Origin: a virus
Length of the DNA stretch: 64,000 nt
Reading direction: 5' to 3' (one strand)
Virus record (IMG/VR): IMGVR_UViG_3300044614_001780
Below, one piece after another: positions 4,119-28,081 of this stretch. Under the pieces are notes generated by a model. The model was not told the origin of the DNA and ran no database searches. It saw only the letters and a program-made list of their open reading frames with translations. Numbering within the stretch: the stretch's first letter is position 1; each line of letters opens with the position of its first letter. Both the position numbers and the translations under genes were made by a program.

Positions 4119-4230
4119 AGAGTAGTAAGACCATCAGGGAAATGGTGGTGATACTATTCCCCAGTCACCCTCAGACTGGGTATGAGAGACGTAATTTATA
4201 CACCCTAGAGGTCTCGGTTTAAGGGGTGTT
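4119..4230 (-). ncRNA. PhotoRC-II-like structured psbA 5'-leader
   Basis: Stems ACACCC/GGGTGT, GAGAC/GTCTC, CCCAGTC/GACTGGG and ACCAT/ATGGT directly upstream of phage psbA, as recalled for the PhotoRC-II motif. Confidence 0.75.
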
Positions 4231-4273
4231 GACAATGTTAAGATTTATGAGAAATCCGTAACATTTGTTTACC

Positions 4274-21476: not shown

Positions 21477-22165
21477 TCTAAGCTATCTACTATCCAAAGA
21501 GTTTGTACGTGTGGATATGCATATCCATTTTGATATAATTTAGTCATCGAGATTCCCCACTTATCTAGAATCTCTTTATGTGCTCGTGATTCCCCATCCT
21601 TAAATTCTTCAAATCCTGGAGTTCCCCCCCAATCATCGTATCCGATTAAAGTACCAGGAACAATGAGATTATTTTCCATCAAATAATCAAATGCATATTT
21701 TGTTGGAGAATAAATGTCTAAATCAAAATCAACATAAAATGCTGGTTTTAAATCTTTTTGTTGAGGAAGAGTCTCTTCAACAAGTCCAGCAATAACAGAT
21801 ACTTTACTTTGATTATTTCTACCTGTAAAGATATTTTGAACTTCATTTTGAATATGCTTTGCACAATCATCTGAAGTATCCAGACTCATATACTTTAGCA
21901 CATTAAATTCATCTGGAAAAATATCTGGATTCCAGGAATCTTGGAAAATGGGTTCTGCTGTTTCTTTTGGCATTCCAGTAAAAACATCAAACCCATAAAA
22001 ATTATTAACTTCTATTTTATGTCTATTTAAAATAGAAGCAATTTCTTTCATCGACCCACCATTAAAAACACCAAATTGATAAACATCATAATTTACCAAT
22101 TCTTCTTTTTCAAAACTATTATGGTCGTTAACTGCAACATCTAATAAAGAAGTTCTCCAACTCAT
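21473..22165 (-). CDS. TylF/MycF-like O-methyltransferase
   Basis: FGVFNGGS, GFDVFTGMP, DFDLDIY and GYDDW motifs. Confidence 0.75.
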   Translation of the reverse strand: MSWRTSLLDVAVNDHNSFEKEELVNYDVYQFGVFNGGSMKEIASILNRHKIEVNNFYGFDVFTGMPKETAEPIFQDSWNPDIFPDEFNVLKYMSLDTSDDCAKHIQNEVQNIFTGRNNQSKVSVIAGLVEETLPQQKDLKPAFYVDFDLDIYSPTKYAFDYLMENNLIVPGTLIGYDDWGGTPGFEEFKDGESRAHKEILDKWGISMTKLYQNGYAYPHVQTLWIVDSLE

Positions 22166-23217
22166 GATTGTTTTTTAGCAATTTGACCACTAATCCATTC
22201 ATATGTTTTACGAATACCTTCTTCAAGAGTCTGAGAATAATCCCAACCCAGTTTTTCACGAATCAAATCATTATTTGAATTGCGACCACGAACACCAAGA
22301 GGTGCATCGAGTTTATGTTCTTTATCTACATTCTTGCCAGAAACTTTAGCAGCAGTTTCAACCAATTGATTGATGGTAACCATTTCTTCTGACCCAATGT
22401 TAACTGGTCCAATAAAATTGGAATCCATCAATCGTCTTGTTGCTTCGATGCATTCATCAATATAGAGGAAAGATCTAGTTTGTTTTCCATCTCCCCATAC
22501 TTCGATAGAACCTCCCTCAGACGGAAGATATGCCACCTTTCTACAAATCGCAGCAGGAGCTTTTTCTCTTCCTCCTTCCCAGGTCCCCTCTGGTCCAAAG
22601 ATGTTATGATATCTAGCAACACGTACAGGAATGCCGTAATTCCTATTGTAAGCAAAATATAGACGCTCACTAAAAAGTTTTTCCCAACCATATTCAGAGT
22701 CTGGATTGGCAGGATAAGCAGAAGACTCCCTACAATCAGGATTATCGGGATCAAGTTGGTTATGCTCAGGGTACATGCAAGCAGAACCAGAATAGAAAAT
22801 TTTAGTATCGTTTTTACCGAATTTTTCATTTAATTTATGCTGCTCCTCAAGAACATTCAAATTAATAGTTGCTGAGTTGTGCATAATGTCAGCATCATTT
22901 TCACCAGTGAAGACAAATCCTGCACCACCCATATCAGCAGCAAACTGATAAATCTCATCAAATGCTTGGATATAACGGTAAGGAACTGACTGATAGAAAT
23001 TGCCTCTATCTCCCTTATATTCAAGCACACGACGAACAAAATCTACATCACGCAAATCTCCCTGAACAAATTCATTTGCCTCAGTGGGAGAAAATTCTGG
23101 ATATTTAAGGTCTACTCCACGAACCCAATATCCTTCAGAACGAAGTCTTTTAACCATGTGACTTCCAATAAAACCACCAGCACCTAAAACAAGTGCTTTC
23201 TTAATGTATTGACCCAT
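22162..23217 (-). CDS. GDP-mannose 3',5'-epimerase-like SDR
   Basis: GAGGFIG, AADMGGAGF, SACMYPE, YGWEKL, GGREKAPAA and GVRGRNSNN (GME signature motifs). Confidence 0.9.
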   Translation of the reverse strand: MGQYIKKALVLGAGGFIGSHMVKRLRSEGYWVRGVDLKYPEFSPTEANEFVQGDLRDVDFVRRVLEYKGDRGNFYQSVPYRYIQAFDEIYQFAADMGGAGFVFTGENDADIMHNSATINLNVLEEQHKLNEKFGKNDTKIFYSGSACMYPEHNQLDPDNPDCRESSAYPANPDSEYGWEKLFSERLYFAYNRNYGIPVRVARYHNIFGPEGTWEGGREKAPAAICRKVAYLPSEGGSIEVWGDGKQTRSFLYIDECIEATRRLMDSNFIGPVNIGSEEMVTINQLVETAAKVSGKNVDKEHKLDAPLGVRGRNSNNDLIREKLGWDYSQTLEEGIRKTYEWISGQIAKKQS

Positions 23218-23252
23218 ACTTTAATCAAGAAAATAATAATTCTTTAGTATAT

Positions 23253-23292
23253 ATCATACTAAAAAAGAGGGGTATTGTAAACCCCTCTTTTT
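23253..23292 (-). terminator. Intrinsic terminator overlapping a sigma70 promoter for the glycosylation cluster
   Basis: AAAAGAGGGGT/ACCCCTCTTTT hairpin; TTTACA-N17-TATGAT. Confidence 0.7.
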
Positions 23293-23295
23293 ATA

Positions 23296-23690
23296 GTTTA
23301 TTTTTAACTGGAGATAATAACCAGGCGGGAGTTATCCCATCCGCACCACCAATTTTTTAGAGAAATTGGAAACTCAATCAGTTGTTCGATTTCTCGGCTC
23401 CACCACCTAGTTTTACTTAACTAGGAAAAGTTGAGTTAACTTTGCAAATTCTATGACTCCATAAAATACACAAAGGATTAAAACATCCCAAAGCTTAAGT
23501 TTAATTGCAAAAGGTACTGTAAATAAACCACCAATACATTTTATTAATAATCCATATTTAAAATCACCCCAAAGAAGAACAAAATATCCAACTATTAAAA
23601 GAAAATTTCCAATATACCTAAGAAGGTCTGCTTTAATCATGTATTAACCCAAGGCACTCCGACCAGTACTGTTAAAGTCCATCCGTGACT
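23296..23690 (-). ncRNA. manA-like (manA/wcaG group) cyanophage structured RNA, interrupted by an ORF
   Basis: GTCACGGATGGAC 5' block, tandem H-type pseudoknots followed by TGGTG, GCGGATGGGATAACTCCCGC hairpin; upstream of a sugar epimerase; family name from recall. Confidence 0.65.
23413..23640 (-). CDS. Small multi-TM membrane protein embedded in the structured RNA
   Basis: 75 aa, about 3 hydrophobic segments. Confidence 0.75.
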   Translation of the reverse strand: MIKADLLRYIGNFLLIVGYFVLLWGDFKYGLLIKCIGGLFTVPFAIKLKLWDVLILCVFYGVIEFAKLTQLFLVK

Positions 23691-23694
23691 ATTT

Positions 23695-23865
23695 TTAAGA
23701 AGCATCATTATGCTCTGTATGTATTTTAATCACTTCACAGTCAGATGGCACAATTGATACCAAACGACCCGTTTTATCTTGAATTAAAAATGATTCTCCA
23801 TTTTCAACTCTATCAATATAATTATCAAAGTTTTTTTGAAAAGATTCAATGGAGATTTTTTCCAT
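23695..23865 (-). CDS. Phd/YefM-like small protein
   Basis: MEKISIESFQKNFDNYIDRVENGESFLI resembles the Phd N-terminal fold. Confidence 0.6.
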   Translation of the reverse strand: MEKISIESFQKNFDNYIDRVENGESFLIQDKTGRLVSIVPSDCEVIKIHTEHNDAS

Positions 23866-24010
23866 CAGACTTTGGGACTCGATGTATATGCATAATACCT
23901 GCAAAAGGAAGTATTGTCAACCCACATCCGCAAAGAAAAAGAAAAAAGGGACTTTGGGCAAGTACTTCTACAATTTTAAATAAAATATTAGTGTGATGTA
24001 CCATTTCCAT
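23846..24010 (-). CDS. Small membrane protein (start uncertain)
   Basis: Hydrophobic SPFFLFLCGCGLTILPFAGIM. Confidence 0.5.
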   Translation of the reverse strand: MEMVHHTNILFKIVEVLAQSPFFLFLCGCGLTILPFAGIMHIHRVPKSDGKNLH

Positions 24011-28010: not shown

Positions 28011-28081
28011 AGCGGACAACGAGGATCGAACTCGTGATTTCAACTTGGAAGGATGACGTGTTACCGCTACACCATGTCCGC
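28011..28081 (-). tRNA. tRNA-Gly(UCC), CCA not encoded
   Basis: GCGGACA/TGTCCGC acceptor stem, CTTCCAA anticodon loop, GTTCGA T-loop; TTGACA-N18-TATAAT promoter upstream. Confidence 0.95.

Follow-up and report, generated by a model that had tools for sequence, protein, structure and literature searches.

An extended, gene-interleaved variant of a known structured RNA at the head of a cyanophage glycosylation operon

Layout of the locus and assignment to an RNA family

The window, a 64,000-nucleotide stretch of viral DNA (IMG/VR record IMGVR_UViG_3300044614_001780), belongs to a T4-like cyanophage, as judged by its PhotoRC-II RNA and its zwf and gnd genes. The PhotoRC-II RNA (RF01717), a known cyanophage motif, scores 82 bits at 4146-4240 on the minus strand. 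The DNA runs that contain the window are freshwater metagenomes. The region under study, also on the minus strand, is a chain of RNA modules with a small membrane-protein gene between two of them, and it lies directly ahead of the first gene of a glycosylation operon. Its features, in 5' to 3' order, are as follows.

23892-23920, minus strand: putative sigma-70-type promoter, near consensus (TTGACA-17-TATTAT, 11 of 12 consensus matches)
23695-23865, minus strand: Phd/YefM-like small ORF (phrog_375, 5.8e-11; PF02604 below cut-off)
23659-23690, minus strand: module A, called the 5' block in the sequence-only reading (pattern scan, stem covariation)
23643-23652, minus strand: 5' arm of a claimed 10-bp closing stem; window-specific leader sequence, no conserved element
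23413-23640, minus strand: 75-aa 3-TM membrane-protein gene in gap 1 (phrog_2318, 4.4e-22; DUF6552-like lead)
23401-23430, minus strand: unit 1, a 7-bp hairpin with an A-rich loop, then UGGUG (alignment, covariation)
23378-23400, minus strand: linker that contains GGAG and a small hairpin (helix 91% paired in the alignment)
23289-23377, minus strand: Rfam wcaG RNA core (RF01761, 59.0 bits)
23344-23375, 23327-23338 and 23296-23324, minus strand: unit 2 pseudoknot, P2 hairpin and unit 3 pseudoknot, all inside the wcaG core
23253-23292, minus strand: composite intrinsic terminator and putative promoter, PeSL-type (sequence, conservation)
22162-23217, minus strand: NAD-dependent epimerase/dehydratase (wcaG-like), first gene of the glycosylation operon (gene annotation)

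The promoter at 23920-23892 is likely the start of a transcript that holds the Phd-like gene, the membrane-protein gene and the RNA chain. The Phd-like ORF probably begins at the ATG at 23865 rather than at the TTG at 23904, and its stop codon (23697-23695) falls 4 nt ahead of module A. The chain mostly lies just downstream of a phage tRNA gene array (L013, L027, L017, L002, L003, L222 and others, where L numbers denote individual homologous loci); the nearest tRNA gene in the window is at 28011-28081 on the minus strand.

The sequence-only reading, whose named sequence elements are all present where it had placed them, had described a manA-like RNA and proposed a search with Rfam models. That search (cmscan) returned wcaG instead: RF01761 matches 23289-23377 on the minus strand over the full model (1-98), with 59.0 bits against a gathering score of 42 (E 2e-08). 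The features of the wcaG core are present, namely two pseudoknotted hairpins around P2 and the sequence UGGUGCGGAUGGG...CCCGCC, and pairing within the core is 81-99%, with covariation, among 41 homologs. Sixteen of the 18 related loci scanned with cmscan also match wcaG, 14 of them at about 90-105 bits and 2 at 59-66. For manA (RF01745) there was no match at E<=10 over 23150-23800 and none reaching the gathering score in the 18 related loci, and membership in that family was therefore rejected; what stands of the earlier assignment is an RNA of the wcaG/manA class that reaches beyond the Rfam model.

The window holds the most degenerate wcaG copy among those seen, its 59 bits against 90-104 in relatives being due to an odd linker and a lost GUGGCG tail. 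The full 3' tail, GUGGCG(A/U)GC, is missing from the window, whose cmscan alignment shows a gap, and from L009, L025, L080, L090 and L115. These five loci and window positions 23256-23435 make up a sub-lineage that has the odd CGA/UCG linker hairpin and no GUGGCG tail. Such degeneracy, with the low score and the lost tail, speaks against both an extended wcaG element and the cis role considered below. The assignment to the wcaG family itself is shown; overall, we judge it probable that the region holds this RNA at full length, as an extended chain of modules on an early phage mRNA.

A chain of modules with genes in its gaps

The RNA is an extended, gene-interleaved variant of a known one. At its 5' end, module A comprises a 4-bp hairpin (AGUC/GACU, 23690-23676) with a 7-nt GGA loop of the form NNGGANN, followed by an A-rich stretch and CUGGUCGG, which ends at 23659. 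An exact pattern scan of IMG/VR found the module in at least 119 viral contigs, which, together with its covarying stem, establishes the 5' block as a conserved module. Stem variants include AGUC/GACU, AGAC/GUCU, CGUG/CACG and CGUC/GACG, among others, and all 4 bp are paired in 77% of anchored cases versus 27% after shuffling. A wcaG core comes after module A almost without exception; a strict core lies within 1.6 kb downstream in 87 of 122 module-A loci, with distances that fall into classes of 327-343 nt (62 loci), 110-135 nt (12), 69-79 nt (7) and longer (6).

The membrane-protein gene noticed within the RNA is real: the 3-TM gene (75-88 aa, phrog_2318) lies between module A and unit 1 in 62 of the 122 module-A loci, while the chain is gene-free in 12 + 7 loci. 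When its ORF body is deleted in silico, the window gives end-to-end alignments with the gene-free loci L065, L002 and L103 at 75-82% identity. Synechococcus phage S-B43 runs from module A through the unit 1 hairpin to the wcaG core with only a short hairpin in the gene position, and S-SRM01 has module A, 3-TM ORF, unit 1 and core arranged as in the window. No further copy of the chain was found within the 64 kb.

A second gap, just before unit 2, is filled by other small genes in some loci, and both gaps are filled in L006, L040, L055 and L072. In L006, L040, L072, L141, L151, L177 and L191, gap 2 holds a gene of ~68 aa starting MTPYELRFEIFKQ..., always preceded by a strong AGGAG and a CA-repeat leader of ~20 nt, which may be a translation enhancer. 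In L127, L131, L146, L166 and L055, the gap-2 gene instead encodes ~70 aa with coiled-coil-like repeats, starting MATKGTAAK..., and its stop codon adjoins the first helix of unit 2.

The number of modules per chain ranges from 2 to 6. The two module types can substitute for one another, as some phages have a module-A-type hairpin in place of the unit 1 hairpin; after either type come an A-rich stretch, a UGGYG motif and a GG(A)-hairpin-CC element. The UGGUGGAG sequence after unit 1 is invariant, and the core contains CGGAUGG. Gene ends are also tied to the chain: in 94 of 101 homologous loci, module A contains or closely follows the end of a long ORF, whose stop codon is in the A-rich stretch in 38. 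In L220 (ACG-2014f), where no wcaG core is present, the 3-TM gene ends in a module-A-type hairpin with a terminator directly after it, which shows that a module can stand by itself.

Structural support for the chain was assessed with an alignment of 41 distinct sequences, 37 pairs and 500 shuffles. Cells are paired in 94.8% of cases versus 85.7% after shuffling, and none of the 500 shuffles reaches the observed value; both-side changes occur at 21 of the 37 pairs, and pairing falls to 34-55% when the partners are slid. The unit 1 hairpin (23425-23419 with 23412-23406) is 96% paired, with compensatory both-side changes at 4 of its 7 pairs, among them C-G to U-A and A-U to G-C. This helix is partly coding, as the last 6 codons and the stop of the 3-TM ORF overlap unit 1, with the stop (23415-23413) in its loop, and each of the 41 aligned homologs likewise has its stop inside unit 1. 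The 5' strand lies in the Leu-Val end of the ORF. The synonymous codons CUA, UUG and UUA occur there, matched by changes after the stop codon, and this speaks strongly for selection on the RNA helix.

The sequence-only reading had drawn three H-type pseudoknots, with the ORF stop inside the first. Units 2 and 3 bear this out, their pseudoknot helices being 81% and 98% paired among the 41 sequences, and the TGGTG described after the first two units is present (UGGUG in the RNA). In contrast, the third helix of unit 1 (CTT/AAG) is paired in just 34% of cells and confined to ~12 of the 41 sequences, so that the pseudoknot was rejected there; unit 1 is a conserved hairpin, and the stop codon lies in a hairpin rather than a pseudoknot. 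The linker hairpin is CGA/UCG in the window and GUCA/UGAC in most homologs. A micro-ORF beginning at the AUG of this hairpin was considered and discarded, since homologs have UUG, CUG, ACG or nothing at that point and the AUG is a by-product of the UGAC stem.

The 3-TM gene family occurs in 196 cyanophage records (tblastn). The model of the protein has three long helices and a short one, with a mean pLDDT of 86.8; its fold matches nothing in the PDB at E<=0.001, weaker hits being generic 3-helix membrane subunits, and Pfam gives no match and the Atlas only a DUF6552 lead. In several phages the gene also lies, without RNA modules, between the sliding-clamp (gp45) and clamp-loader (gp44) genes, and in L223, L224 and L227 (S-SCSM2R, SynMITS9220M01 and S-H34) it does so with overlapping start and stop codons. 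This site is a core-genome location, unlike the variable region of the window. At the clamp site the protein ends in ...QL(S/T)L, whereas the in-chain protein reads through unit 1 to ...QLFLV(S/K), its stop being the UAA of the A-rich loop. Most loci have GGAG ~10 nt before the 3-TM ATG, inside a small GGG/CCC hairpin, and most homologs have a shorter leader, with this hairpin leading straight into the ATG. Small, ordinary and mobile in its own right, the 3-TM gene sits in an inter-module linker.

That conclusion differs from the earlier proposal of a self-contained RNA-protein unit, OLE/OapA-like, or a dual-function RNA, in which a 10-bp stem would enclose the looped-out gene and the stop codon might be a site of readthrough or frameshifting. 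The proposed stem (23652-23643 with 23440-23431) is absent from 43 of 43 other distinct homologs examined, even from the nearest relatives L009, L025, L080, L090 and L115, and 51% of dinucleotide shuffles yield a helix of at least 10 bp between the 26-nt leader and the 228-nt ORF. We therefore rejected the stem as specific to the window and at chance level, and place the gene in a linker between two independent modules rather than in the loop of a stem. Recoding was likewise rejected, as a second in-frame stop follows two codons on, the shifted frames are closed or unconserved, and no extension frame is conserved. The adjacency of gene and RNA in 62 of 122 module-A loci and the stop codon inside a structured module would fit such a unit. 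However, the chain occurs without the gene, or with other genes, and the gene occurs without the chain at gp45/gp44; as each is found alone, a partnership of the OLE/OapA kind is not supported, and with stem and recoding also gone we find an RNA-protein unit scarcely credible.

The composite terminator and promoter and the downstream sugar genes

The terminator hairpin spans 23292-23262, with a T-run at 23266-23261, all on the minus strand. The embedded promoter predicted by the sequence-only reading is present, with its -35 element TTTACA (23281-23276) in the hairpin loop, a 17-nt spacer and the -10 element TATGAT (23258-23253). In 85 of 103 distinct loci, wcaG is followed within 130 nt by a hairpin with T-run, at a distance of 5-25 nt from the RNA. 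A TAnnnT box stands right after the T-run in 71 of these 85, and is exactly TATAAT in 51 of them. The -35 element (TTG-type or TTTACA) is in the hairpin in 69 loci, at a spacing of 17 nt in 68 and of 16 nt in 1, which puts conservation of the composite as a whole at 69 of 103 distinct wcaG loci. Elsewhere in the window, at ~29687 and ~2983 on the minus strand, two more terminators stand immediately before a -10-like box, one with TTGACG in its loop; such composites are therefore general in this genome.

The next gene begins ~105-115 nt after the wcaG core. In 9 of 10 sampled loci this first downstream gene encodes a sugar-nucleotide or glycan enzyme, drawn from 7 Pfam families. The strict link of the RNA to sugar-nucleotide genes, despite the changing first enzyme, favours a role in cis, contrary to the suggestion of the sequence-only reading that the RNA is not a riboswitch for the epimerase. 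At the same time, the promoter separates the RNA from the glycosylation genes, so that transcripts from the nearest promoter would lack the RNA leader. No conserved antiterminator pairing between the terminator 5' arm and the aptamer was found, their complementarity being weakly above shuffles (mean z -0.8).

Metatranscriptome contigs from three studies, which may include DNA, cover 23383-23869 and 22913-23313. None bridges 23314-23382, and these contigs are uninformative on transcript ends or terminator read-through. The ends of three metatranscriptome contigs fall between 23869 and 23894, which hints weakly at a transcript start.

Possible roles of the chain and comparison with known systems

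In the mechanism that we propose, an early transcript would start at the 23920-23892 promoter and pass through the Phd-like gene, module A and gap 1 with the 3-TM gene, and then through unit 1, the linker hairpin, the wcaG core and the composite terminator/promoter into the glycosylation operon. The chain stands at the 3' end of this upstream early unit and would act in cis on the sugar genes, setting read-through of the terminator in response to a putative ligand or factor, and the terminator-embedded promoter would provide early sugar-gene expression independent of the RNA. A ribosome finishing the 3-TM gene would have to unfold unit 1, so that 3-TM translation and unit 1 folding would be mutually exclusive. 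We put forward only tentatively that the chain is a cis element tuning read-through into the sugar genes. No ligand is known, the search for a conserved antiterminator pairing gave just a weak shift, and the promoter inside the terminator makes control by read-through partly redundant; moreover, the variable module number and repeated GGA resemble a protein-binding array more than a single aptamer.

A rival along these lines is a scaffold or sponge, in which the repeated GGA motifs would take up a host or phage RNA-binding protein in several copies, acting in trans or as a protein-recruiting 3' UTR. The chain resembles Csr/Rsm decoy RNAs, and the variation from 2 to 6 modules, the NNGGANN loop on the 4-bp stem of module A, the invariant UGGUGGAG and the CGGAUGG of the core are in line with such binding. 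However, four complete chain-bearing phage genomes contain no CsrA gene (PF02599), which disposes of a phage-encoded CsrA in these genomes, and a decoy in trans leaves the strict position ahead of sugar genes unexplained; we regard a scaffold as rather improbable. A broader proposal is that wcaG is the end of a modular, multi-site RNA class, made of GGA-loop hairpins, H-type pseudoknots and UGGYG ends and running through early phage mRNAs among small genes, and is not a single-aptamer riboswitch, with the binding of a multi-copy factor or of ribosomes gating transcription or translation into the glycosylation island. We think this unlikely, though less so than a scaffold.

The modules might also be punctuation for a cassette of small genes, placed at gene ends with no sensing role, where they would serve the stability or processing of a polycistronic early mRNA or link the translation of adjacent small genes. 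The gene ends at module A and in its A-rich stretch (94 of 101 and 38 loci), the 3-TM stop inside unit 1 in every aligned sequence, the gap-2 genes that stop right at the start of unit 2, and the GGAG and GGG/CCC hairpin ahead of the 3-TM ATG are all consistent with this. Yet units 2 and 3 and P2, which usually lack an ORF end, are the best conserved parts, and each genome region has the chain just once, ahead of sugar genes, and not at small-gene junctions generally, which makes punctuation a doubtful account, a shade more so than a scaffold. As the same two gaps hold different genes in different phages, and as the chain ends in a PeSL-type element, of a kind proposed to shuffle cassettes (PMC2839356), the modules could instead be homologous linkers at the DNA level for recombination that shuffles small genes, the RNA folds being incidental. 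The compensatory base changes that keep the helices argue for selection on RNA structure, and leave recombination linkers a very unlikely explanation.

In the literature searched we met no account of the extended chain, of genes interleaved in it or of the composite terminator/promoter as a constant feature. As a riboswitch candidate, wcaG has been an orphan since 2010, and the curated model captures just the 3' third of the modular chain. This short reach of the model, the genes between the modules and the promoter that separates the RNA from its presumed targets alter the choice of constructs, and of ligands or partners, for testing. The element is common, with at least ~120 viral contigs in each of two scans, and marks the head of phage glycosylation clusters. 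Unit 1 also shows clearly how an RNA helix and the codons that overlap it evolve together.

Among known systems, the manA motif comes from the same paper and the same phages as wcaG and also has pseudoknots, but the window has no RF01745 match. The OLE RNA with OapA is alike in that a structured RNA adjoins a small membrane-protein gene; here, however, co-occurrence is not obligate in either direction (at least 19 gene-free chains; RNA-free gene), and there is no sequence or structural relation. PeSLs, in which a stem-loop terminator is combined with a sigma-70-like early promoter in T4-type phages (PMC2839356, PMC4122927), have been proposed to mediate cassette shuffling (PMC2839356). The composite in the window shares with them this fusion, the intergenic position and the variable region. 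The stem-loop of a PeSL often lies between the -35 and -10 elements, whereas in the window the -35 lies in the hairpin loop, and PeSLs were described in coliphage- and vibriophage-type T4 relatives, while the window is from a cyanophage.

The closest relation is to the wcaG motif itself, known from cyanophage or marine DNA and reported by Weinberg et al. 2010 (PMC2864571) as RNAs found upstream of exopolysaccharide genes, with no known ligand (PMC2864571). The window agrees with that motif in scoring above the gathering cut-off, in its two pseudoknotted hairpins around a GGG/CCC hairpin, and in its setting, a T4-like cyanophage with an epimerase/dehydratase (wcaG-like) gene directly downstream. 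It differs in that a protein gene is interleaved, that its lineage has lost the 3' GUGGCG tail, and that a promoter stands between the RNA and its proposed target gene. Whereas the Rfam model spans just the last 89 nt, the element in the window begins ~310 nt further upstream.
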